A stretch of DNA of 64,000 nucleotides from Candidatus Woesearchaeota archaeon (GTDB taxonomy: Archaea > Nanobdellota > Nanobdellia > Pacearchaeales > GW2011-AR1). The translations under genes and the position numbers were made by a program. Under the pieces are notes generated by a model. The model was not told where the DNA came from, did not search any database, and saw nothing but the letters and a program-made list of their open reading frames with translations. Positions within the stretch are counted from its first letter, which is position 1, and each line of letters opens with the position of its first letter. The DNA lies in the NCBI GenBank assembly GCA_964355135.1, contig CAYHCG010000003.1, positions 72,783 to 136,782 of the forward strand, written 5' to 3'. Positions 22,501 through 61,804 of the stretch are shown here, piece by piece.

Positions 22501-24237
22501 GTGAAGAAAGCACAAATACGCCAGCCAATCGTCACAGTCGCTGGCCATGTAGATCATGGGAAAACCAGTCTATTAGATCAATTTAGAGGTAGCTCTGTCC
22601 AAAGTGGAGAAGCAGGGGGAATTACACAGAAGATCTCATTTACAAAATATCCTTTAACTCAAATAAAAAGAGCCTGCCCTTTGATTGATAAACAAGGAAT
22701 TGATCTTGAAATCCCCGGTTTTCTATTCATTGACACCCCGGGACACGCAGCCTTTACAAATTTAAGAAAACGTGGAGGAACTCTTGCAGATTTAACCATT
22801 CTTGTTGTCAACATAAAAGAAGGAATAAAACCACAAACAGCAGAAGTATTGCAAATATTAAAGGCAAATAAAACTCCTTTCTTGATTGCATTAAATAAAA
22901 TAGACACTATCTCAGGATGGAAGCCGTTTAATGGTAAAACGCTAAAAGAGTCTATCGAGTCCCAAGCAATCAACGTCAGTCAGGAATTCCAGGAAGCATT
23001 ATTGACTTTCCAAGGTTCTCTCTCAGAGCATGGTTTTGAATCAGATTTATATTATGAAATCTCAGACTTTACAAAAAGAGTAGCTCTCGTTCCCTGCTCT
23101 GCAAGAACAAAAGAAGGCATTCCCGAATTATTATTAGTTCTTTGTGGACTCTCGCAAAGATTCCTTAAAGAAAGACTAACTATCTCAGATAGTGCTAAAG
23201 GAGTCATCCTAGAGATAAAAAAAGAGAAATCCTTAGATTCAATCGAAGCAATTCTATATGATGGTACTCTCAAAGAAGGAGATGAAATTGCGATAGCAAG
23301 TTTCGATACTTTAATCACTTCAAAAATCAGGGCAATAGAAGAAATAGAATCTCTTTCTTTTAAGTATAAATCAACAAAAGAAGCAACAGCAGCTACCGGA
23401 GTCAGGCTTCAGCTCACTAATAAAGAAAATCTTCTCTCAGGAATGCCCTTTCAAAAAATAGACAATAACCTAGAAAAAATTAAGGAAAATTTCAAAAAAG
23501 AACTCTCTCATGCAATAAAAACAGATCCACAAGGGATTATCATAAAAGCAGATTCTCTAGGCAGCCTAGAAGCTCTAATCACTCTCTTAAGACAAAATCA
23601 CATTAGTATCGTAAAGGCAGGAGTCGGCCCCGTAAGCAAAACAGATATTGTTTCTGCAAAAGCAAATCTAGAAATAAACTCTTTAGATGCCGTAATCCTT
23701 GGTTTTAATGTTAAACTGGATGAAGACACTCAAGCAGACAACATCAAAATCCTCACTAGTGAAGTCATCTACAAACTCATTGAGGACTTGCAAGTATGGA
23801 GAAAACAAAAGCAAAGCGATGTGGAAAGAGAAAGATTGATGGAACTTGCAACAGTCTGCAAATTAGAAATCTTACCTCAATATATCTTCAGAAATTCCAA
23901 TCCGGCAGTCTTTGGAGTGAAAGTATTGGCGGGAAAAATCAAGAATAACCTTCCATTGATAGATCAAAATAACGAGGAAGTAGCTAGAGTAAAAGCGATT
24001 CAATCTGAGAAAAAGTCAGTAGAGGAAGCTTCAGAAGGTCAAGAGATAGCAGTCTCCCTTCCAGGAGTAGCTTTCGATAGAAAGCTCAAAGACATCAAAT
24101 TCCTATACTCCCAATTAGGCGAAAGTCAATTCAAGAAATTTAAGCAAAATAAAGATCTTCTATCCCAAACAGAAATAAGAACTTTAGAAGAAATAGCAGC
24201 CTTGAAGAGAAAAACCAAGTTAGACTGGGGCGTTTAG
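22501..24237 (+). CDS. infB: translation initiation factor aIF5B (IF-2 homolog)
   Basis: GTG start. GHVDHGKTSLLD, DTPGH and NKID GTPase motifs. 578 aa with no intein. Confidence 0.93.
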   Translation: MKKAQIRQPIVTVAGHVDHGKTSLLDQFRGSSVQSGEAGGITQKISFTKYPLTQIKRACPLIDKQGIDLEIPGFLFIDTPGHAAFTNLRKRGGTLADLTILVVNIKEGIKPQTAEVLQILKANKTPFLIALNKIDTISGWKPFNGKTLKESIESQAINVSQEFQEALLTFQGSLSEHGFESDLYYEISDFTKRVALVPCSARTKEGIPELLLVLCGLSQRFLKERLTISDSAKGVILEIKKEKSLDSIEAILYDGTLKEGDEIAIASFDTLITSKIRAIEEIESLSFKYKSTKEATAATGVRLQLTNKENLLSGMPFQKIDNNLEKIKENFKKELSHAIKTDPQGIIIKADSLGSLEALITLLRQNHISIVKAGVGPVSKTDIVSAKANLEINSLDAVILGFNVKLDEDTQADNIKILTSEVIYKLIEDLQVWRKQKQSDVERERLMELATVCKLEILPQYIFRNSNPAVFGVKVLAGKIKNNLPLIDQNNEEVARVKAIQSEKKSVEEASEGQEIAVSLPGVAFDRKLKDIKFLYSQLGESQFKKFKQNKDLLSQTEIRTLEEIAALKRKTKLDWGV

Positions 24238-26897: not shown

Positions 26898-27146
26898 ATG
26901 GTAACAACAATTCAGCTCAACGAAGATGTAAAAAGAGAATTAGATAGAATGAAATCTAATAAAGAAACATACGAAGAAGTAATTTTAAATTTAATGAAGA
27001 TTGCTGAAAAATACAAAAGTGAACAAGAAAAGTTGCTGATTGAGGGATGTAAAGAAATGTATGATGATATGTCTAAGATAGCTAAAGAGTGGGAAGGGAC
27101 TCTAATGGATGGTTTGGACAAGAATGAAAAATGGAACGAATTATAA
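26898..27146 (+). CDS. antitoxin-like protein paired with MazF
   Basis: 82 aa. The N-terminal TIQLNEDVKRELDRMK has an antitoxin-like strand-helix pattern. Overlaps the mazF start by 16 nt. Confidence 0.6.
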   Translation: MVTTIQLNEDVKRELDRMKSNKETYEEVILNLMKIAEKYKSEQEKLLIEGCKEMYDDMSKIAKEWEGTLMDGLDKNEKWNEL

Positions 27147-27478
27147 GAGGAGAGATTGTAGTAGCAAACTTAGAACCGACCCAAGGTTCAGAACAGGGCG
27201 GGATCAGGCCCGTATTAATTATTCAAAATGATACTCTTAATAAATATGCTCCCACAACAATAATTGCTCCAATAACCTCCAAAATTTACACAAAGGAGTA
27301 TCCCACAAATGTAATAATCAAAAAAGAAGAATCTAGATTAAAATTAGATTCCACAATTCTGCTAAATCAGATAAAAGTGATTGATAAAAAGAGAATTATT
27401 AAAAAAGTTGGATCACTTGATAATTTCACAATGAACAAAGTTGACAGAGCAATTAAAATAAGTCTCAATCTCGATTAA
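27131..27478 (+). CDS. mazF: MazF/PemK-family endoribonuclease toxin
   Basis: RGEIVVANLEPTQGSEQGGIRPVLIIQND ... IIAPITS, the canonical PemK pattern. Confidence 0.88.
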   Translation: MERIIRGEIVVANLEPTQGSEQGGIRPVLIIQNDTLNKYAPTTIIAPITSKIYTKEYPTNVIIKKEESRLKLDSTILLNQIKVIDKKRIIKKVGSLDNFTMNKVDRAIKISLNLD

Positions 27479-27555: not shown

Positions 27556-27981
27556 ATGCCATTCAAACTAAATATAGGCGAAAAAGGAAAAAGCTGGAAA
27601 TTAGAGTTAGAAACAGAATATCTAATTGGAAAATCTGTCGGAGAAACAATCCACGGCAAGGAATTAAAACACGAATTAGAAGGATATGAATTTGAAATAT
27701 CCGGCGGTTCAGATATCTCTGGTTTTCCCTTGTCTAAAGACGCTGAAGGAATTGGATTAAAGAAAGTATTATTAACAAAGGGCTGGGGAATGAGAGATAA
27801 TACTAAGGGAATAAGAAGAAGAAAGACAGTCAGAGGAAAGACAATTTCTAGTAAAGTAGTTCAGATCAATCTCCGCGTTGTAAAGAGCGGTAAAACTACT
27901 CTAGCGCATGTCTTTCCAGATCAGAACAAAGCTCCAGAAGCTGTTAAAGTTGAAGAGAAAGCTGTTGAAGTAGCTGCTTAA
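27556..27981 (+). CDS. rps6e: 30S ribosomal protein S6e
   Basis: FKLNI ... ISGGSDISGFPL ... RRRKTVRG pattern of S6e. Confidence 0.92.
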   Translation: MPFKLNIGEKGKSWKLELETEYLIGKSVGETIHGKELKHELEGYEFEISGGSDISGFPLSKDAEGIGLKKVLLTKGWGMRDNTKGIRRRKTVRGKTISSKVVQINLRVVKSGKTTLAHVFPDQNKAPEAVKVEEKAVEVAA

Positions 27982-30953: not shown

Positions 30954-31040
30954 TCTTATTGTTTCAAAAGAATTATTGTTAAGATATACAAAGTTGCCAA
31001 CCATCCAAACCCTTATAAAACCCATTTTCTCTTTCTTTAT

Positions 31041-31097
31041 ATGTCAAGAATTAATTGAATTCTTGAGCATGCTCAGAAATCGGAGATTTATGACAAT
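31041..31097. repeat. nested palindromic MITE-like element, copy C, overlapping the aIF2-gamma promoter and start
   Basis: TTCTTTATATGTCAAGA left end, core TCTTGAGCATGCTCAGAA (one deletion), degenerate right arm TTATGACAAT that covers the ATG. Confidence 0.55.
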
Positions 31098-32310
31098 GGC
31101 AGAGAAAAGTAAACAACAAACAGTTTCAGCAGATGAATTAGAAACTATTAATATAGGTATCTTTGGACACATAGATCATGGTAAGACTTCGCTACTTGAA
31201 AAAATAAGCGGAAAATGGACAGATACTCACTCAGAAGAAATTAAAAGAGGAATAACCATAAAACTAGGATATGCAGATACAATCATCTGTAAAGACAAAG
31301 ATGAATATAATATCTCCGGCAAGGGAACCCCAGTAAGACACGTATCTTTTATTGATTCTCCAGGACATGAGATGTTAATGGCCACAACTTTATCTGGAGC
31401 AGCTTTAATAGATGCTGCAATTCTAGTTATTGCTGCAAATGAAGGCATAAAGCCTCAAACTCAAGAACATTTAATGGTCTTACTTGCAAAAAAAGTAGAA
31501 AAAATTATAGTTGTTCAAAATAAAATAGATTTAGTTAATATTGAAGTAGCAAAAAAGAATTATTCTGAAATAAAAAGATTCCTTGGAGAAAAATACGCAA
31601 GCTCTAAAATAATTCCAGTTTCAGCCCAACAAAATGTTAATATTTCGCAAATCTTAAGAGCAATCTGTGAAATATCCATTCCCAAAAGAAACCCTGCAGA
31701 TATCCCAGTATTTACAGTAGCAAGAAGTTTTGATATCAACAAACCAGGTACATCTCCAAAAGAATTACATGGGGCAGTGTTAGGAGGAACATTAATACAA
31801 GGAAAATTAAAGGTCGGAGATATGATTGAAATAAAACCTGGAAGAAGCACTAAAGAAGAAAACGAAAAGAAATATCATTCAATCAATACAAAAATAATCT
31901 CCCTTTTCAAAGGCTCAAATAAAACTGCAGAATTAACTCCTGGAGGCAGCATGTCAATAGAAACAGATCTTGATATGGCATTAGCTAAATCCGATGCTTT
32001 AGCAGGCAATCTAGTCTCCCATATCGGAAAATTACCGCAGTCTTCAAATATTATAAAAATGAAATATCACTTATTTCCTAGAGTTTTTGGAATATCAAGT
32101 GAAACAAAAGTAGAAGAAGTAAAAAAAGGAGAAGTTATAATGCTTTCAATAAACACTTCTGTAACTGGCGGAACGGTAACTACAATAAATAAAGATGAAT
32201 TGCAGATCTCTCTTAAAATCCCAGCAATTTTCTTCAAAAGTGAAAACGTTGGCTTGGGTAGAAATATCCTAGGTCACTGGCGTTTGATTGGTTATGGTGA
32301 GGTAATATAA
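31090..32310 (+). CDS. eif2g: translation initiation factor aIF2 gamma subunit
   Basis: GHIDHGKTS, DSPGH and NKID motifs; a KRGITIKLGYAD segment. Start set at MTMAEK, preceded by GGAG. The 38 upstream ORF-track codons overlap the repeat/promoter. Confidence 0.93.
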   Translation: MTMAEKSKQQTVSADELETINIGIFGHIDHGKTSLLEKISGKWTDTHSEEIKRGITIKLGYADTIICKDKDEYNISGKGTPVRHVSFIDSPGHEMLMATTLSGAALIDAAILVIAANEGIKPQTQEHLMVLLAKKVEKIIVVQNKIDLVNIEVAKKNYSEIKRFLGEKYASSKIIPVSAQQNVNISQILRAICEISIPKRNPADIPVFTVARSFDINKPGTSPKELHGAVLGGTLIQGKLKVGDMIEIKPGRSTKEENEKKYHSINTKIISLFKGSNKTAELTPGGSMSIETDLDMALAKSDALAGNLVSHIGKLPQSSNIIKMKYHLFPRVFGISSETKVEEVKKGEVIMLSINTSVTGGTVTTINKDELQISLKIPAIFFKSENVGLGRNILGHWRLIGYGEVI

Positions 32311-39678: not shown

Positions 39679-41670
39679 CTACTGAATCATCTGCTGATTC
39701 TTAATAACATCAGCAGCATCTTTATTATGCGCTAAATATCCTTCTGCATAATAAGTACTTGATCCACTAACATCTAAGTTATACACTTCAACACTTCCCT
39801 TTACTTCTTTAATAGACAATATGACTTGCTGTCCAGTTTCAGTCTTCAAGCTATCTCCTACTTTAGCGGTCCCAATCTCCGCCCATTTACCATTAACCAT
39901 CATCGGATGATTTGGAGTGACCTTTAATTTTCCATTTATCAATAAATAAGAGTCTGCCACACGACTATATAATTCTGTTACCTTGTTGCTTTCCATACTA
40001 TTACTCGCTTCGTTATAACTTACGACAACATCTCCTTCTTTAATATCTTTGATCATCACTTTTCCATTCGTTGTAGTAATCATCGTATCAGGTAAGAAGC
40101 ACGTTCCGCTAACTGGAGGATTCTTTACACAAGCACCCCACTGACAAGTTGAACTACATATTTTAGTTCCAGCTGCTCCCCCGCCAGCATTACAATTTGT
40201 TTTCTTTCCAATTGGTTCACAACCCTCTCCAACTTCTAAAATTCCATTTCCACATACAGGAGGAGGTTGCTGGAAGCAATATAGATGATTTGGAGTCGTA
40301 CAAGCAGCAATACCACCATGATTAGTCCAATTAAAATTAACTCCAGCAACTAAACCGTTAGAACCATAAACCGATGATAAGCTTGAAAGCCAATTTCCAC
40401 AATCACTACTAAAACCACCACCAAAATTAAAATGATTTCCACTTGCATCTGTCCCTGTCCAAGCTAGATTATTATTATCTAAGAGCCCTCCATATTGAGT
40501 CATATTTATTGAATTATCTAAAGATCCATCAATCAAATCATTCCAATTATCAGCGACTATTTTATTGCCACCATTAGCACTAGTACCTACAGTTCTATAT
40601 GGAACTGTAGAATGATATAATCTGGAATTTGGAGAATTACCTAAATTATCACTTATCCAAGCTCTCCAAGTTCCTCCTAAACCAGCTGCATTCGCACCCA
40701 TTTGACATTTCGCATCAGCACCTGCAACTCCTCCAAGATTCCCATTATATACTTCACTTGTTACAAAAACTAAATATCTAGGTTCATTTGCACAACTTGA
40801 ATCGCATCCGTCTCCTGAAACCAAGTTGTTATCATCACATTGTTCTGTACCCTCAGTCACACCATTTCCACAAATCTGAGTAAGAGGACAATCCTGAATA
40901 CAAGTTTGAGAGTTTTCTCCACCTCCTTGATTTGAACAAATTCCATCACCACAACTTACAGCTTGACAATTATTACTACATACGTCTAAATCTTCTTCAT
41001 TCCCATCATCACATACTTCTCCAGGACTAACACAACTATCTCCGCAAATATTATTCTGAACAATTACTGAAGTTGGAACTATATCAGAAGTCACTGCATC
41101 TCCCATGGTATAAACTCCGCTAAATGAATTAGAACCAATTAACGCAGAAGCTGTTGGTTTAACACTATAAGAATATTGGGCAGAAGGTATTGTTGTCGGT
41201 GGAACTGCCTGGCTATATTTAACAATTTTCATTTTTCCAGGCGTTTGAGTATTAACATCCGCTCCAGTACTAACGACACTCCAACCCGCAGGTAAACTAT
41301 CCTCAACGACATAAAACATATATTGATTACCAGTATTAACACTAAAATCAACATTAATAGGACAATCAACCCCAACAGAACTTGCACTTAAAGTCCTTGT
41401 AACCATATCGATAGGAGATAAATCAGGTGAAGAAACACAACTACCTAATTTAAAAATTCTATTCAAAATACTTTCACTTCCAACAAACATACAACCGTTC
41501 ATCTTCTCGCATTCTTTCTGCGAACACCATGCTCCATCGCTACATTGCTGACTACAAAAATCTTCTTGAGCACTAGCATTAGAAGAAATAGTAATTAAAA
41601 TTGCAAAAAATAAAGTTACAAAAATGTAAAACTTACCCCTTCCCTCTTTTTTCATTGTTCTATTTATCAT
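39679..41670 (-). CDS. secreted Cys-rich DUF11-like + DUF1554-like protein ending in a Hint autoprocessing domain
   Basis: Signal peptide, EDSLPAGWSVVS sandwich, and DUF1554-like block at 40270-40779. C-terminal CFLPDT ... TPNHP ... VYNL ... AHN. The start may be the internal MKKEG. Confidence 0.85.
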   Translation of the reverse strand: MINRTMKKEGRGKFYIFVTLFFAILITISSNASAQEDFCSQQCSDGAWCSQKECEKMNGCMFVGSESILNRIFKLGSCVSSPDLSPIDMVTRTLSASSVGVDCPINVDFSVNTGNQYMFYVVEDSLPAGWSVVSTGADVNTQTPGKMKIVKYSQAVPPTTIPSAQYSYSVKPTASALIGSNSFSGVYTMGDAVTSDIVPTSVIVQNNICGDSCVSPGEVCDDGNEEDLDVCSNNCQAVSCGDGICSNQGGGENSQTCIQDCPLTQICGNGVTEGTEQCDDNNLVSGDGCDSSCANEPRYLVFVTSEVYNGNLGGVAGADAKCQMGANAAGLGGTWRAWISDNLGNSPNSRLYHSTVPYRTVGTSANGGNKIVADNWNDLIDGSLDNSINMTQYGGLLDNNNLAWTGTDASGNHFNFGGGFSSDCGNWLSSLSSVYGSNGLVAGVNFNWTNHGGIAACTTPNHLYCFQQPPPVCGNGILEVGEGCEPIGKKTNCNAGGGAAGTKICSSTCQWGACVKNPPVSGTCFLPDTMITTTNGKVMIKDIKEGDVVVSYNEASNSMESNKVTELYSRVADSYLLINGKLKVTPNHPMMVNGKWAEIGTAKVGDSLKTETGQQVILSIKEVKGSVEVYNLDVSGSSTYYAEGYLAHNKDAADVIKNQQMIQ
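39724..40101 (-). other. Hint (intein/BIL/hedgehog-type) domain, 126 aa
   Basis: Block A: C524-F-L-P-D-T. Block B: T-P-N-H-P. Blocks F/G: VEVYNLDV...YYAEGYLAHN. Followed by K and only 13 more residues. Confidence 0.8.
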
Positions 41671-43400: not shown

Positions 43401-44687
43401 TCACTGCAAAAGCCATTTCCATAAAGGCACAAACTTAATTCCATTTTCCGTCTTCTCAATATTTTTTGTCAAAATTATCATTTCTTTTGTTTTTATATAA
43501 AAGGACTTAAATTTTATTAAAGCATTAATTTCTCTTTCATCGATATCATCACTATAAGTAACATTTAAAGCAGTTAAAGAGCTGTCAGAATTTTTTATAA
43601 CAAAATCTACTTCCTCCTGTTTTTCACTTTTCCAATAATAAACATCTTTTTCTTCCCTTCTCAACTTTAAAAAAACCAGATTTTCAGCTAATTTTCCTTC
43701 ATCTTTTGAGAACTTGAAAGAGACAGAATTTCTAAGTCCATTGTCAATACAATAAATTTTTGATGCCGAAGTTTTCTGTTCTTTTAAAGAATATGAAAAG
43801 TGATCCAATGTAAAAAATAAGTATGCCTCTTTAAAATAAGAAATATAATTCTTTATTGAATCATAAGATATACCTAAAGAATTTCTTAGATTTCTTAATG
43901 ATGTTAAAGAAGTAAAATTGGTAATTAAATATAACGCAAGATCTCTAGTTTTCTGGCTGTTTAAATTGTTTCTATCTATTATATCTTTATATAAAATGTC
44001 ATCAAAATACTGTTTCAATAACTTAGATTTATATGTTTCTTCTTTAAAGAATATCTCTGGAAATCCTCCAATTTCAAGATAATTTTTAAAATTTTTAATT
44101 ATCTTTCTCTTCGTTTCTTCTAGTACAATCCCTTTAGAATGTTTTTCTTTATCAATTTCAATATCTCCAAATACAAGATACTCTTCAAAATTTAAAGGAA
44201 ACACTTCAAAAGTTAAGTTTCTCCCCGTAAGAAGAGTTGAATACTCCTTTCTAAGTAAATAAGAACATGAACCTGAAAGAATAAATTTTTCATCGCTTCT
44301 TTGGTCGTATTTTTTTCTTACCCATGATTCCCAATCTTCTTTTTTATGTATCTCATCAAGAAATACATATGCTTTTTTATCTGAATTTATATTTTCCCTA
44401 TAACTATCATAAATACTCTCTAGAGAGTCTTGACTTAGTTTTTTATCATCAAAATTAATAAATAATATTTGTTTTGGTTCTATTTCATCCTCTAAAAGTT
44501 TTTTAATCATTTGGTACATGAGCGTACTTTTCCCACTTCTCCTTACTCCTAAAATTATGGTTATTTCCCTAATGTTTATAGAATTGATTAAAGAATCATA
44601 AGCCGGCCTATGTTTTCCCGTTAATTTGTCAACTAATTCTTTCTTTATCCACCAAGGGTTCCATTCATTAAGTTTTTCTATTTCCAT
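43401..44687 (-). CDS. AAA+ ATPase of the AAA_14 + DUF4143 (COG1373) type
   Basis: NPWW N-terminus, Walker A GVRRSGKST, Walker B VFLDEI. C-terminal E-VDFVI nuclease-like motif. Confidence 0.88.
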   Translation of the reverse strand: MEIEKLNEWNPWWIKKELVDKLTGKHRPAYDSLINSINIREITIILGVRRSGKSTLMYQMIKKLLEDEIEPKQILFINFDDKKLSQDSLESIYDSYRENINSDKKAYVFLDEIHKKEDWESWVRKKYDQRSDEKFILSGSCSYLLRKEYSTLLTGRNLTFEVFPLNFEEYLVFGDIEIDKEKHSKGIVLEETKRKIIKNFKNYLEIGGFPEIFFKEETYKSKLLKQYFDDILYKDIIDRNNLNSQKTRDLALYLITNFTSLTSLRNLRNSLGISYDSIKNYISYFKEAYLFFTLDHFSYSLKEQKTSASKIYCIDNGLRNSVSFKFSKDEGKLAENLVFLKLRREEKDVYYWKSEKQEEVDFVIKNSDSSLTALNVTYSDDIDEREINALIKFKSFYIKTKEMIILTKNIEKTENGIKFVPLWKWLLQ

Positions 44688-51098: not shown

Positions 51099-51102
51099 TC
51101 AC
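51052..51102 (-). promoter_or_regulatory. 51-nt segment identical to 43284-43334, directly after the ATPase stop
   Basis: Same sequence. The ATPase stop codon (51099-51101) lies inside the identical block. Confidence 0.6.
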
Positions 51103-52382
51103 TGCAGAAGCCATTTCCAGACTGGAATTAGTTTTATTTTCTTCCCTTCAATATCTATACTTTCTTCTTCATCCAGAGTTATTATAATTCCTTCTTTAAG
51201 TTTAAATTTGTTTAATGCTTCAAATAATCCATTTACTTCCCGTTGTTTATTATCCATTGTAATTTTTTCACTCACTTGAATTGCCTCAACTATCTTTTCT
51301 TTTTCCAAAATTAGAAAATCACATTCATGATTATCCCTGTTATAAAATACCTTTTTACCTTTTCTCCTAAGTTCTAAAAAAACAATATTTTCAAGCAGTT
51401 TACCTCTATCTTCTGAAAATTTAAAACTTATTGCATTTAACATTCCATTATCTATAAAATATACTTTTTTTATCGAACCAAGCTGTTTTCCTAAGGAATA
51501 TTCATATTTTAAGTTCTGAAAGAAAAGATAGGCATCTTCAAAATAAGAGATATATTCAATAATTGTATTCTTGCTTGTATTCATACCCATAGATTTCAAT
51601 TTATTAGCAAGATTATTATAAGAAATATCTTTTGAAACAGATTCCATTAATAAATTTGCTAGTATTCTTATTTTCTTTACATCTTCTATTTTGTGCCTTT
51701 CAACAAGATCTTTAAAAATCATAGATTCATAATAGTTTTGCAAAATTTCTTCACTATTTACTTTCTGGAAAATTAAAGCAGGATACCCTCCATCTTTAAT
51801 ATAAGCATTAAATAACTTCTTAATTTCTATCCTATCATTACTATGTGGTAAAGTTCTAATATCATATTTTATCTTTTTCCAGCTGACAATTTCCTTAAAG
51901 CTTAATGGAAAGATTTCTTTATTGAGAACTCGTCCCCGTAATGTTGTTGATATTTCCTTGCTAAGTAATTTCGAACTTGAACCAGTAAGAACAAATTTAA
52001 TTTTCTTGTTTACATCATGAAGTTTTCTAACCCAAGAATCCCAATTTTTTACATTTTGTATTTCATCAAGAAATAAATATATCTTCTGATTTTTATTTAT
52101 ATCGTAAAGTTCAAAATAAGCCTGGAGAAGTTTTTCTAAATCGTCTGAATCTGCTCCAATAAGTTTATTATCTTCAAAGTTTATATATAAAATGTTCTCC
52201 CTTCCAACATTATTTTTAATTAGATCTTGCATAATTTGAAAACATACAAATGTCTTTCCTGCTCTTCTAGGTCCAGATATTGTAGTTATAAAATCTCCAT
52301 CTAAACTTATGTCATGGCTCCTGCTAAAAAGCTGGGGAATTTCAAATTCTTTCCAATTAGTTATTATTTCTTTATGATTCAT
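51099..52382 (-). CDS. AAA+ ATPase of the AAA_14 + DUF4143 (COG1373) type, paralog
   Basis: Walker A GPRRAGKT, Walker B LFLDEI, E-CDFLI motif. Same C-terminal VWKWLLQ as the 43401 paralog. Confidence 0.88.
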   Translation of the reverse strand: MNHKEIITNWKEFEIPQLFSRSHDISLDGDFITTISGPRRAGKTFVCFQIMQDLIKNNVGRENILYINFEDNKLIGADSDDLEKLLQAYFELYDINKNQKIYLFLDEIQNVKNWDSWVRKLHDVNKKIKFVLTGSSSKLLSKEISTTLRGRVLNKEIFPLSFKEIVSWKKIKYDIRTLPHSNDRIEIKKLFNAYIKDGGYPALIFQKVNSEEILQNYYESMIFKDLVERHKIEDVKKIRILANLLMESVSKDISYNNLANKLKSMGMNTSKNTIIEYISYFEDAYLFFQNLKYEYSLGKQLGSIKKVYFIDNGMLNAISFKFSEDRGKLLENIVFLELRRKGKKVFYNRDNHECDFLILEKEKIVEAIQVSEKITMDNKQREVNGLFEALNKFKLKEGIIITLDEEESIDIEGKKIKLIPVWKWLLQ

Positions 52383-59221: not shown

Positions 59222-61654
59222 TTAATTAAGATTATTTTTGGGAAGATTTTCAATATAGGCCCGCAAATCTTCATCCTCAACCCATCTTAATACGGCTTTA
59301 TGAGAGACAGAAATTCCGCGATCGCGTTGTAAGATTTGAGAAGTCCCAAACCCAGTACCCTTGTCTTTGTATACTTCAAATACTGCTGCAATTTGTTCAG
59401 TTGAACTTTTTACCCCGCGATATCTCCCCTCAGGTATTCCAAGCCCGTTATATATCGTCTCAGCCGGACTAGGATCTTTTTGTAATTGCAATCTCCCCAT
59501 TACTCTAGTAAAAATTCTTTTAATTTGAGGATTTTCTTTTAGAACCAAACCCAATATTGCTCTATTTCTAATAGTATAGGGGGCAAGTTTAGTTCGAAGA
59601 TCTTCCAGATGATCATTAACAGTCTGCGTATCTTGAGTTGTAACTCCATATTTCCTCCACACATCTGTAGAGCTAAGGGCTCTGGAAGAACCATTATTTT
59701 TATTATGATTTTCAACGTAGTGAGGAACAAAATATAAAAGGTGTTCTGGTAAATCTGCACGAGTGGTAATTTTTCCTTCCTTGCGTCTTGCATTAACTAT
59801 TTTTCTTAATTCGCTCAAACGTGCTGAAGGTGAAGCTTCAGGCGTACTTTCATATTCTAATCCTAAAGCTTCATAAACTTTATCTCTTTCTAACTCGGAT
59901 TGTCTAATAACTCTCTGTAATCTTTCATACAATTTTTTATCCGCTTTCTGAAGTTGGGTAGGAGCGTTAATTCCTTTTAATTTTGTAAATTTACTAACGG
60001 CATGCACAACTGATTCTCCATCGAAACTTCTTCCTTCTCTTCTTATAGAATAACCGTTTCCTTCTAAAACAGAATCTTCATCCGGCGAAGAGTCAACTAC
60101 ATTATCAATACCTAAAGAACGTTCCCCGAACCGGGCATTTTTTGCTTTTAACTGCTCAAAAATTCTTTCCAGTTTAGCTTTCTGTATTCTAAGTCTACTA
60201 ACTTCCTCAAAATCTACATCCGCTAGTTCATAGATCTCTTTTATGCCTCCTTCAAAATGCCTGATAAGTCTAAAGCCAAATTGATCGTTAATATCTTGAA
60301 CAGTAGGATAATGTGATGCTTTAATTTCTTCTCTTACATATTCAACTACTTCTTGCCGAAGTTTTCTTTTATCTTCCTCAGAAGTAATTCTAAAAGCGGG
60401 CACAAATGGAGCAGCTTCAATAGGCTCGAAACTTATCTCGGATTTTGAATCATAAATATTAAAAAATGCCTCTCTTACTTTTTTTACGGCATTAAGTTGA
60501 ATTTTTCTTACTGTCTCCATTGTTACACCAATCTCTTCACCAATATCTTCCAAAATTCTAGTTTTTCCAGCAAATCCAAACCTCTCTTTTATAATTTTCA
60601 TCTCTCTTTCATCCAGACCTGCAAGATTATATCTAATTACATCTCTAACAAGTTCTGATTGTGATGTTTCCTTCAAAGCCCGCTTATATTCTTCATATGC
60701 TCTAGCTTCTCCAAAAGAATGCGTACGCGGATCATAAGATTCTCCAGCTTCATGTCTATCTTCCTTCATACCATATCTCAAAATCGCTTTTTCCAAACCC
60801 TTGCAGATATAAGTTGACAATCTTGTTCCAAAGTTAGGATCGAACCTCATAATACAATCGCGGATAGTTTTGGCTGTCTCTATTTCCCGCCAGTCTACTC
60901 CTCTCTTTTCTCCCATATACTTTCCTAAATTAAAAGTAATTTGCGTCAAAAAGTCCATCATTGCTGTAACCCTAAGATAAGACGTCGCCATTTCACTAAC
61001 CTTGCCCATATTATTTTCTTTATCTTCTGACTGCAGTATTTCCCCCGCAACTCTAGACATTTCTCTGCGATGATGGTTAAAAGACTTTAGAAAATAAGTT
61101 TCTTCTTCGTCAGACATTTCGTGCTGAAAACGGCTTTTCCCCTTATGCAAAACTCTCTCTCTTTCAAAAGCGCTTAATTCCTCTAGATCAGACCTAGTAT
61201 AAGTCTTGTCTTCATAAAAAATAGTCCTTCTCTCTCTCAGTACGCTCTCCAAACCTCTCTCGTCCAAAGGAATAAAACCATTGTCAAAATCAGGGCTTTC
61301 AAAAACATGGGGATATTCAATTAATAAAGCATAAGCTAAATTTTTAGGTATTTTTGTTTCTCCTGTAAAGCCAAGATATCGTTCTGCTATTTCCCTTAAA
61401 CGAGTGCTCCTTTTAATAGACTCTTGGTCAAAATTTCCGTCAAAAACCCTTTCTAGAGTACTTAAGCTATGCACTAAAGAAGCGCTTGCTTCCCTACTCA
61501 CTCCATCAGTTAGATCTTTGGGATAAAAAAGTAGTCTGCCTCTATGTGAATCAACTGCTTCTACTTCTGCCCTATACCAACCGTTTTCTATAGCTTTCAT
61601 TGTTCTTAAAAAGTCTAAAATTTGAGCATATCTGTATACTGTTTTAACAGTCAT
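59222..61654 (-). CDS. 810-aa protein with bacterial sigma-70 region 2 and region 4 motifs plus long N- and C-terminal extensions
   Basis: Region 2-like: IRDCIMRFDPNFGTRLSTYICKGLEKAILRY. Region 4-like: LDEREMKIIKERFGFAGKTRILEDIGEEIGVTMETVRKIQLNAVKKVRE. Additional C-terminal HTH-like GTSQILQRDRGISVSHKAVLRWV. Confidence 0.8.
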   Translation of the reverse strand: MTVKTVYRYAQILDFLRTMKAIENGWYRAEVEAVDSHRGRLLFYPKDLTDGVSREASASLVHSLSTLERVFDGNFDQESIKRSTRLREIAERYLGFTGETKIPKNLAYALLIEYPHVFESPDFDNGFIPLDERGLESVLRERRTIFYEDKTYTRSDLEELSAFERERVLHKGKSRFQHEMSDEEETYFLKSFNHHRREMSRVAGEILQSEDKENNMGKVSEMATSYLRVTAMMDFLTQITFNLGKYMGEKRGVDWREIETAKTIRDCIMRFDPNFGTRLSTYICKGLEKAILRYGMKEDRHEAGESYDPRTHSFGEARAYEEYKRALKETSQSELVRDVIRYNLAGLDEREMKIIKERFGFAGKTRILEDIGEEIGVTMETVRKIQLNAVKKVREAFFNIYDSKSEISFEPIEAAPFVPAFRITSEEDKRKLRQEVVEYVREEIKASHYPTVQDINDQFGFRLIRHFEGGIKEIYELADVDFEEVSRLRIQKAKLERIFEQLKAKNARFGERSLGIDNVVDSSPDEDSVLEGNGYSIRREGRSFDGESVVHAVSKFTKLKGINAPTQLQKADKKLYERLQRVIRQSELERDKVYEALGLEYESTPEASPSARLSELRKIVNARRKEGKITTRADLPEHLLYFVPHYVENHNKNNGSSRALSSTDVWRKYGVTTQDTQTVNDHLEDLRTKLAPYTIRNRAILGLVLKENPQIKRIFTRVMGRLQLQKDPSPAETIYNGLGIPEGRYRGVKSSTEQIAAVFEVYKDKGTGFGTSQILQRDRGISVSHKAVLRWVEDEDLRAYIENLPKNNLN

Positions 61655-61663
61655 TGAAATTTC

Positions 61664-61677
61664 AAATTTTTAATAGA
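61664..61677. promoter_or_regulatory. perfect 14-bp palindrome upstream of the sigma-like gene
   Basis: TAGACTTAAGTCTA, 10-23 nt upstream of the ATG (61654) and adjacent to TATTAAAAAT. Confidence 0.4.
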
Positions 61678-61804
61678 CTTAAGTCTAAAAATGCCTAAAT
61701 TTTGAACGTTTTTAAGGCTTATTATGATCGCTTATAATCATTAAATTACCTTAATTTCTTCGTTTTTAAGACTAAGTTAAACGAACTTTAAGAAGAAAAT
61801 ACTC

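Follow-up and report, generated by a model that had tools for sequence, protein, structure and literature searches.

A long, divergent paralogue of the DPANN sigma-70-type proteins, encoded among giant secreted-protein genes of a Woesearchaeota archaeon

Introduction

Archaea start transcription with TBP, TFB, and TFE, and they do so without sigma factors. Single-cell genomics of DPANN lineages by Rinke et al. in 2013 is said to have noted bacterial-type sigma factors in archaea. The present study deals with a gene of this kind, an open reading frame (ORF) on the minus strand at positions 59222-61654 of a 64,000-nt stretch of contig CAYHCG010000003.1 (the window, hereafter), from the assembly GCA_964355135.1 of a Candidatus Woesearchaeota archaeon. 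An earlier note on this DNA, made from the sequence alone, had described the product as a bacterial sigma-70-like protein of 810 residues inside an archaeal secretome island. The ORF is indeed there, ATG-initiated and 810 codons long, and its product is called the query below.

The closest described systems are the sigma-70-type proteins of DPANN archaea. The sigma-70 family fam00359 has been reported to be prevalent in Woesearchaeota; that study left its function open and saw no anti-sigma (PMC8204110). Besides, DPANN viruses and a prophage are reported to carry rpoS-like genes (PMC12647753). Two of the relatives recovered in our study, P0006 (MBI2451920.1) and P0007 (MBI5804185.1), are annotated by NCBI as 'sigma-70 family RNA polymerase sigma factor' of a Candidatus Pacearchaeota archaeon. 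Therefore, a bacterial-type sigma in an archaeon is already known from PMC8204110 and the NCBI annotation, and the central claim of the earlier note, which had itself mentioned such genes in DPANN archaea, falls within this record. We infer that the relatives analyzed here correspond to the published DPANN sigma-70 families.

A conserved sigma-70-type protein in DPANN is an anomaly of which the literature has taken note, but no detailed dissection has been published. A limited literature search found no description of the long fused form presented here, of the private N-terminal domain of its family, of the absence of sigma-3, of the pattern of kept and lost residues, or of the placement after the L18e-L13-S9 genes. 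The earlier note had regarded a giant form among host-interaction genes as not yet analyzed, and no equally long form turned up in our searches. Our analysis places the query as a divergent paralogue within this sigma-70 branch. With moderate confidence, we favor the reading that the archaeon uses it in its own cytoplasm as a multi-domain transcription regulator that binds DNA.

Results

A sigma-70 branch in DPANN archaea

An exhaustive phmmer search of 1.84e9 representatives gave 1333 matches at E<=1e-3; word-indexed searches, made with the whole protein and with the alignments of the family and of its N-domain, returned only the query itself, a fragment, P0012, and bacterial sigmas. One group of matches, class A, comprises proteins of ~350-390 residues that align end to end with query residues ~26-397. 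These make up ~17 clusters including fragments, with P0003 as the best (E=5e-36), followed by P0004 and P0005. For this relationship, tblastn gave values from 1e-44 to 2e-19, and one class A locus among the GTDB representatives is from a Candidatus Woesearchaeota. Residues 1-413 of the query and 13 class A proteins constitute the alignment A1. From its N terminus, A1 shows a domain with the motifs HSxSVLExVFxGxFP, TGxGKxPQNLAYxLLxExP, and FxNGFxP, then a region-1.2-like helix (SREEExxxF), region 2 (N..LV ... FDxxRGxKFSTYAC), a short variable linker, and region 4 (NLAxLxERE..VI..RFG....TL..VGK..GVT.ERVRQ.Q..AL.KIR).

Region 4 is recognizable in the query by itself, in agreement with the earlier note. 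The Pfam model Sigma70_r4 (PF04545) matches residues 344-395 with 40 bits, where 24.1 is the cut-off (E=2.7e-10), the NCBIfam models of RpoS, RpoH, and RpoD match the same region, and phmmer of the query alone against the PDB finds region 4 of SigA and RpoS at ~1e-7. The PHROGs family phrog_351, 'RNA polymerase sigma factor', is matched with E=8.4e-15. The proposed check with Sigma70 profiles held for region 4, and region 2 stayed below threshold in the query alone, for which no Pfam match exists. There, TIGR02937 spans residues 267-396 with 35.1 bits, under its cut-off of 42.9, and a 33-residue stretch aligns with RpoS 135-167 (regions 2.1/2.2) at 1.3 bits; class A relatives taken alone reach 19.5-23.4 bits on PF04542. 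Region 2 becomes clear through the family profile and through comparison of an AlphaFold2 (AF2) model by Foldseek.

The A1 profile matched Bacillus subtilis SigA (7ckq_F) with E=3.6e-39, and dozens of SigA, RpoD, and RpoS chains came next. Profile positions 188-278 correspond to SigA 138-228 (regions 2.1-2.4; 54.6 bits), and positions 283-348 correspond to SigA 294-359 (region 4; 74 bits). The intervening SigA residues 229-293, which form sigma-3, have no counterpart in the profile alignment. Since the A1 profile, the AF2 model, and Foldseek all point to sigma, class A is a true branch of the sigma-70 family, with a two-domain architecture like that of the extracytoplasmic function (ECF) sigmas and a sequence affinity to groups 1/2.

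Domain layout of the sigma-like half

The following features lie, like the ORF, on the minus strand. The earlier note had left the ~220 residues ahead of the sigma module unassigned, but most of this flank is a conserved, family-specific alpha/beta domain (residues 19-145; 61220-61600) that is kept in 13 short relatives. Over this stretch, its motifs are HSxSxLExVFxGNF and TGxxKIPxNLAYALLxEYP...DFxNGFxP. An AF2 model of residues 1-413 with A1 as input has a mean predicted local distance difference test score (pLDDT) of 80.5, and it shows the N-domain (residues 20-147) as a four-stranded sheet with helices at high pLDDT. No Pfam or PDB sequence relative of the class A N-domain was found. Scans for it recovered one locus in genome contigs and two in metagenome contigs, and none in the viral contigs of IMG/VR. 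Alignments with all class A relatives begin at Met19 of the query (nt 61600), and therefore the true length may be 792 rather than 810 residues. Codons 1-18 of the annotated ORF (61601-61654; MTVKTVYRYAQILDFLRT) are without counterpart in any relative.

The N-domain is followed by a query-specific insertion of 32 residues (146-177; 61124-61219), which is a gap in all relatives of A1 and has a pLDDT of ~50-70. The divergent sigma-2 domain then occupies residues 178-302 (60749-61123), with the region-1.2-like helix and regions 2.1-2.4, as indicated by the family profile, AF2, and Foldseek. Its modeled helices span residues 182-208, 212-250, 260-270, and 279-302, and the region-2-like peptide that had been quoted earlier, ETAKTIRDCIMRFDPNFGTRLSTYICKGLEKAILRY, is present at residues 259-294. 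In the place of sigma-3 there is only a short disordered linker of 11 residues (303-313; 60716-60748), with a pLDDT below 50 at residues 306-314 and no three-helix domain. The sigma-4 domain (residues 314-400; 60455-60715), assigned by Pfam, NCBIfam, PDB, and PHROGs matches, contains regions 4.1 and 4.2 with a helix-turn-helix (HTH), modeled as helices 314-341, 349-358, 368-375, and 379-405. The quoted region-4 peptide, LAGLDEREMK..., starts at residue 344, and the nucleotides named as the core of the sigma module, 60467-60991, encode residues 222-396. Foldseek comparison of the model of residues 1-413 with the PDB gave bacterial sigma chains for all top matches (probability ~1.0), and phage sigma factors lead among the BFVD matches.

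Conserved and replaced residues

As established by structural work on sigma-70, Q-E-x-N of region 2.2 serves core binding in bacterial sigmas, W-W in region 2.3 is the melting wedge, and the stretches W-W-I-R-Q and R-x-I-R-x-P-x-H provide the wedge and the -10/-12 contacts. Compared with SigA, class A keeps the structural core of regions 2.2/2.3 (G, L, A-V, F-D, G, F-S-T-Y-A). Q-E-x-N is not conserved, and both of the contact stretches are replaced. The set of residues equivalent to sigma-70 Y425/F427/Y430/W433/W434/Q437/T440 is not conserved in the family, whose F-S-T-Y-A is kept but whose W-W-I-R-Q has given way to variable residues, and the query reads T-R-L-S-T-Y-I-C-K-G at this -10 recognition/melting stretch. 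Region 4 is far better conserved in class A than region 2, including T-x-E-R-x-R-Q of the recognition helix.

The query keeps all of the 14 family-conserved residues of the N-domain and 12 of the 15 in sigma-4. In sigma-2, only 10 of 17 are kept, the fewest in the family. Furthermore, its recognition helix reads T-M-E-T-V-R-K, against the family consensus TkERvRQ. From this pattern of retention and the changed recognition helix, the query is a bona fide but divergent member of class A, and its DNA specificity is probably different.

Genomic placement of the short relatives

In six of the nine independent genomes examined, all six of Pacearchaeota/Woesearchaeota type, a short class A gene lies directly 3' of L18e-L13-S9 on the same strand. 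This arrangement was seen for P0004 (L003 1217-3651), P0003 (L002 2327-5560; L004 589-3821), P0006 (L005 4187-7170), P0005 (L007 2697-5040), P0026 (L008 2466-4368), and P0010 (L010 3752-6089), where L numbers denote loci. The query, P0008, P0012, and P0024 are found outside this slot, so that the placement is frequent but not universal. The synteny persists among proteins that are only 25-40% identical, and it speaks for vertical, housekeeping inheritance in this lineage and against contamination; a housekeeping role is suggested for the short form. The query departs from class A in its length (410 residues more past region 4.2) and in its position away from L18e-L13-S9. It is a divergent class A paralogue outside the ribosomal-protein context.

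On one Pacearchaeota contig (L008 3325-5873), a second paralogue, P0007, with 28% identity lies two genes past P0026, with a DUF192 gene between them. A DUF192 gene also comes directly after the sigma-like gene at L010 5001-6563. Other observations at these loci include a PP-binding (acyl-carrier-protein-like) gene of ~130-146 residues between L13 and S9 (L002 3131-3571, L004 1392-1832, L005 4967-5359), which is an unexpected member of a ribosomal-protein cluster, and an XerA-like tyrosine recombinase on the opposite strand, which often comes after the class A gene.

This placement bears on the strongest rival of our reading, an RNA polymerase (RNAP)-associated specificity factor. Here, the family would be a true alternative initiation factor that binds archaeal RNAP through sigma-2 on the clamp coiled-coil, which is universally conserved, with the N-domain as an archaeal adaptor; the short form would serve housekeeping promoters and the query those of the secretome island. 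The slot after S9, which the short members occupy, holds the RNAP subunit genes rpoN and rpoK in most archaea. Conservation in the family also extends over the sigma-2 scaffold (G, L, AV, FD, G, FSTYA) and all of sigma-4, the -35-contact residues E-R-x-R-Q among them, and paralogues occur in one genome, as alternative sigmas do. However, equivalents of Q-E-x-N (2.2) and W-W (2.3) are not conserved in the family, and neither sigma-3 nor a recognizable sigma finger is present. Sites resembling sigma-70-type promoters are not enriched around the query gene either (5 sites against an expected 9.4), and the retention of TBP, TFB, and TFE has been reported for DPANN genomes (PMC8204110). On balance, we regard a true initiation factor as unlikely.

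Native archaeal origin

The contig of the query encodes S6e (27556-27981), aIF2-gamma (30976-32310), and an aIF5B-type IF-2 (22501-24237), and therefore the host is archaeal. CysRS, Dus, and others are also encoded on it. The earlier note had seen a hint of foreign origin in hand-counted G+C contents of 42% and 32%, against 31% for the neighboring gene. This difference was not reproduced. G+C is ~0.35 and flat along the window, the query gene has a G+C of 0.364 and a third-position value (GC3) of 0.244, and its flanking genes have 0.349 and 0.378. The synonymous-codon log-likelihood of the query gene, -0.94, is mid-range for the window. Since G+C and codon usage match the window, recent transfer and chimerism receive no support. 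The position of the relatives in archaeal ribosomal-protein operons also counts against a foreign origin.

The bacterial affinity of the sigma module is the sole point in favor of bacterial contamination or a chimeric contig. Given the archaeal S6e, aIF2-gamma, and aIF5B on the contig, its uniform G+C and codon usage, and the homologues beside archaeal ribosomal proteins in several independent metagenome-assembled genomes, including those of Woesearchaeota and Pacearchaeota, such an origin is scarcely credible. An identical protein is present on a 149.5-kb contig and on a Logan contig; the gene is thus found in two assemblies, which may share one source sample.

The query is the only sigma-like gene in the window (n=1), where scans for tRNA genes and Rfam families gave no match. 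A PemK/MazF-type toxin gene (27131-27478, plus strand; E=5.6e-35) directly precedes S6e. On the P0012 contig, too, a PemK toxin is encoded, together with a VapB-like antitoxin.

LexA-like unit and C-terminal tail

Past the sigma-4 domain, the query carries a single LexA-like, winged-helix-type unit (residues 421-487; 60194-60394), a linker that is helical and then disordered and acidic (residues 488-545; 60020-60193; isoelectric point 5.4; single-sequence AF2 at low confidence), and an orphan basic helical tail of 265 residues (546-810; 59225-60019; isoelectric point 9.65). Single-sequence AF2 of the whole 810-residue protein gave a pLDDT of 35.6, which is not usable for the C-terminal half.

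In a second group of matches, class B (P0013-P0029), every protein has several matches to query residues ~415-495. With a hidden Markov model (HMM) of 34 class B units, the query shows a single copy, at residues 421-487, with 78.7 bits. In the PDB, the unit profile matches best to the DNA-binding domain of LexA (3k2z_A; E=0.0016; helices 1-2 only). Against the Pfam model LexA_DNA_bind, the query unit scores a weak 13.3 bits (E=0.072), and 9 of 28 related units are likewise weak matches. On this marginal similarity, residues 421-487 are probably a winged-helix-type DNA-binding module.

The class B family (P0013, P0014, P0017, P0018, P0023, P0025, P0029; L011 383-2029), which is undescribed, has 3-6 tandem LexA-like units of ~65 residues, which usually flank an Mrr-type PD-(D/E)xK nuclease core. 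The unit consensus is K..G.YP...EI..KF.I....YF.GGI.E.Y..AG, and no Pfam model for it exists. Class B proteins give weak Pfam matches to LexA_DNA_bind and Mrr_cat.

No homologues beyond residue ~545 were present among the best 150 of the exhaustive-search matches, and residues 546-810 have no significant Pfam domain. The C-terminal flank had been described earlier as holding repeated (I/V)Y..LG(I/L) units and a terminal HTH, and neither description survived. Only two exact matches to the motif occur, at residues 593 and 734, and the profile of the real unit finds only its one copy at residues 421-487. The segments around residues 593 and 734 show no significant similarity to each other (z<=2.9 against shuffles) or to that unit. 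The unit profile and the shuffle test thus reject an internal-repeat array in residues 540-810. The terminal HTH is unsupported, as HTH_21 reaches 14 bits with E=0.061.

The LexA-like unit bears on two further explanations. A mobile-element or defense protein, such as an MzaA-like large sigma or a prophage 'rpoS', could be considered, since the fused unit occurs otherwise in Mrr-type nuclease proteins and two ATPase genes of the candidate defense family PDC-S01 are present in the surrounding array. Weak matches to MzaA (NCBIfam 30.1 bits; PADLOC 22.3 bits; region 4 only), the rpoS-like genes in DPANN viruses and a prophage (PMC12647753), and the phrog_351 match (E=8.4e-15) point in the same direction. 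However, the MzaA and PHROG matches span the generic sigma module only, and no integrase, capsid, terminase, or Mza partner genes are found nearby. In addition, the composition is native, the query has no nuclease domain, and the N-domain was not found in viral contigs. A mobile or defense origin is thus very improbable in our view, and membership in the MZA defense system in particular was rejected, with the MzaA match confined to region 4 and no Mza partners.

The second explanation is that the gene is a duplicate that decays or drifts neutrally and has no specific function, or else an artifact of assembly or gene fusion. The eroded sigma-2 domain and the orphan tail would fit, as would a long form without orthologue whose two assemblies may come from one sample. 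However, a 2.4-kb open frame at 36% G+C is very unlikely without selection (an estimated ~7% stops per random codon), and codon usage is typical throughout. The N-domain and sigma-4 residues are kept as described above, and the in-frame LexA-like unit has clear homologues. Decay or artifact is therefore an improbable account of the query gene.

Secreted-protein array and upstream region

The query gene sits within a long co-directional array on the minus strand that codes for giant secreted proteins with InlB B-repeats, M11-like peptidase, DUF4215/DUF1554, PT-HINT, FG-GAP, and Laminin_G_3 modules. Its direct neighbors encode an M11-like peptidase and a 2235-residue InlB-B-repeat protein. The label 'secretome island' is thus a fair one. 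No anti-sigma domain was found in the neighboring genes, for which Pfam only was used, and no intrinsic terminators were found near the query gene.

The note had also proposed that the query could be an effector that is passed to a bacterial partner and hijacks the RNA polymerase there. Its gene does lie among secreted adhesin-, protease-, and toxin-like genes, and sigma-4 is very bacterial-like at the family level, with the 74 bits to SigA region 4. However, the query has neither a signal peptide nor a transmembrane segment, with a top 19-residue Kyte-Doolittle mean of 0.68. In the absence of a hydrophobic segment, it is cytoplasmic unless exported unconventionally, unlike its neighbors. The core-binding and -10 residues are not conserved, and the sigma-2 domain of the query is the most eroded one. 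Furthermore, close relatives reside in ribosomal-protein operons, not in secretion loci, and the N-domain was not found in IMG/VR. Owing to the missing export signal and the unconserved -10, melting, and core-binding residues, an effector aimed at bacterial RNAP is disfavored and highly unlikely.

Upstream of the gene lies an AT-rich intergenic region of 150 nt (61655-61804, minus strand) with two copies of a 13-nt direct repeat, at 61707-61719 and 61761-61773, spaced 54 nt. On the plus strand, the copies read CGTTTTTAAGGCT and CGTTTTTAAGACT; on the minus strand of the gene, they read AG[C/T]CTTAAAAACG. The exact 10-mer CTTAAAAACG is confined to these two copies within the window. The repeats could be candidate tandem boxes of the TATA or TFB-recognition-element (BRE) type, or an operator.

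Several other genes of the array were recorded. A 663-residue protein (39679-41670, minus strand) combines DUF4215 and DUF1554 modules with a pretoxin-HINT domain at its C terminus, and this layout suggests a secreted protein of the polymorphic-toxin type. At L010, a comparable Laminin_G_3/PT-HINT giant protein is encoded close to the sigma-like gene. Two AAA_14/DUF4143 ATPase genes (43401-44687 and 51099-52382, both minus strand) stand among the giant secreted-protein genes. Both have a G+C of 0.27, compared with ~0.35 for the window, and match PDC-S01 of PADLOC with E=1e-107 and 1e-115. L005 also has AAA_14/DUF4143-like genes.

Discussion

The present study suggests how the query could act as a DNA-binding regulator of its own archaeon. 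Its residues 19-400 are a divergent paralogue of a sigma-70 branch specific to Pacearchaeota and Woesearchaeota within DPANN, whose canonical members have ~360 residues and usually follow L18e-L13-S9. In the query, a single LexA-like winged-helix unit and the basic tail of 265 residues have been added to the sigma module by fusion. The HTH of sigma-4 may bind specific DNA, and the C-terminal modules may assist in this. The N-domain and the sigma-2 scaffold could contact a partner in the archaeal transcription machinery. The regulated genes would form a specialized set, for which the giant secreted-protein genes in the co-directional array around the query gene are plausible candidates.

Several observations weigh against this reading. 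Our analysis shows the family membership, domain layout, native archaeal origin, and missing export signals of the query, along with the loss of the residues that bacterial sigmas need for -10 melting; DNA binding, the targets, and the contact with archaeal RNAP are what we infer for it. No upstream motif common to the island genes was found, and the 10-mer repeat occurs only 5' of the query gene. The similarity of residues 421-487 to LexA is marginal (E=0.0016), the C-terminal tail of 265 residues is without homologue or Pfam domain, and the sigma-2 domain, as the most eroded in the family, could be under relaxed selection. An orthologue of the long form was not found in our searches, and thus neither the fusion nor the island position is established as conserved. 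Likewise, the fusion of the sigma module with the LexA-like unit is without independent confirmation, because both assemblies that carry the gene may derive from one sample.

A broader scenario can be outlined, although we give it rather little credence. Pacearchaeota and Woesearchaeota may have taken a sigma-2/sigma-4 protein of bacterial descent, equipped with a new adaptor domain at its N terminus, into their basal transcription apparatus and begun to diversify it into 'alternative sigmas', of which the query would be one dedicated to the island of cell-surface and host-interaction genes. If true, a sigma-type promoter-specificity subunit would work with a eukaryote-like RNA polymerase, and its family would be encoded in the L18e-L13-S9 operon, at the place of the small RNAP subunit genes of other archaea.

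The anatomy of class A marks a distinct branch of the sigma-70 family, with a private N-domain, no sigma-3, a strongly conserved sigma-4, and the loss of the bacterial melting and core-contact residues. Its placement in ribosomal-protein operons points to a housekeeping role in the archaeon over a stray transferred gene, and the query shows such a module being duplicated and fused to further parts of DNA-binding type. Being a single orphan variant, the long form is of moderate individual importance and brings only a modest advance on the archaeal-sigma puzzle.

Among the known systems, MzaA of the MZA anti-phage system resembles the query in being large (~700 residues) and in having a C-terminal-type sigma region 4. 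However, the query matches MzaA with 30.1 bits, compared with an equivalog cut-off of 800 bits, over region 4 only, and no Mza partner genes are nearby. The class B Mrr-type proteins share the ~65-residue unit with the query (78.7 bits), but they have 3-6 units and usually a PD-(D/E)xK nuclease core, where the query has one unit and no nuclease.

Like the group 4 (ECF) sigmas, the query joins sigma-2 to sigma-4 through a short linker. In contrast to them, its affinity is to groups 1-3, TIGR02937 stays below its cut-off (35.1 against 42.9 bits), and the best 60 PDB matches include no ECF chain; no anti-sigma-like neighbor of the query was found with Pfam. In sequence, sigma-2 and sigma-4 both match best to SigA/RpoD and RpoS of groups 1/2, with which the signature RFG(L/F)...TLxxxG...GVTxExxRxI is common. 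Here, class A differs by having no sigma-1.1, sigma-3, or 3.2 finger, and by an N-domain unlike any bacterial sigma region. W-W and R.IR.P.H of regions 2.3/2.4 and Q-E-x-N of region 2.2 are not conserved in class A, and a bacterial core RNAP is not expected in the archaeal host.

The DPANN sigma-like proteins remain the nearest counterpart. Residues 19-400 of the query align with them end to end at 24-32% identity, with the N-domain, sigma-2, the short linker, and sigma-4 in common. In contrast to these relatives, the query is more than twice as long, carries the 32-residue insertion, the LexA-like unit, and the basic tail of 265 residues, has the most eroded sigma-2 and a changed 4.2 recognition helix, and is encoded within an array of secreted-protein genes.

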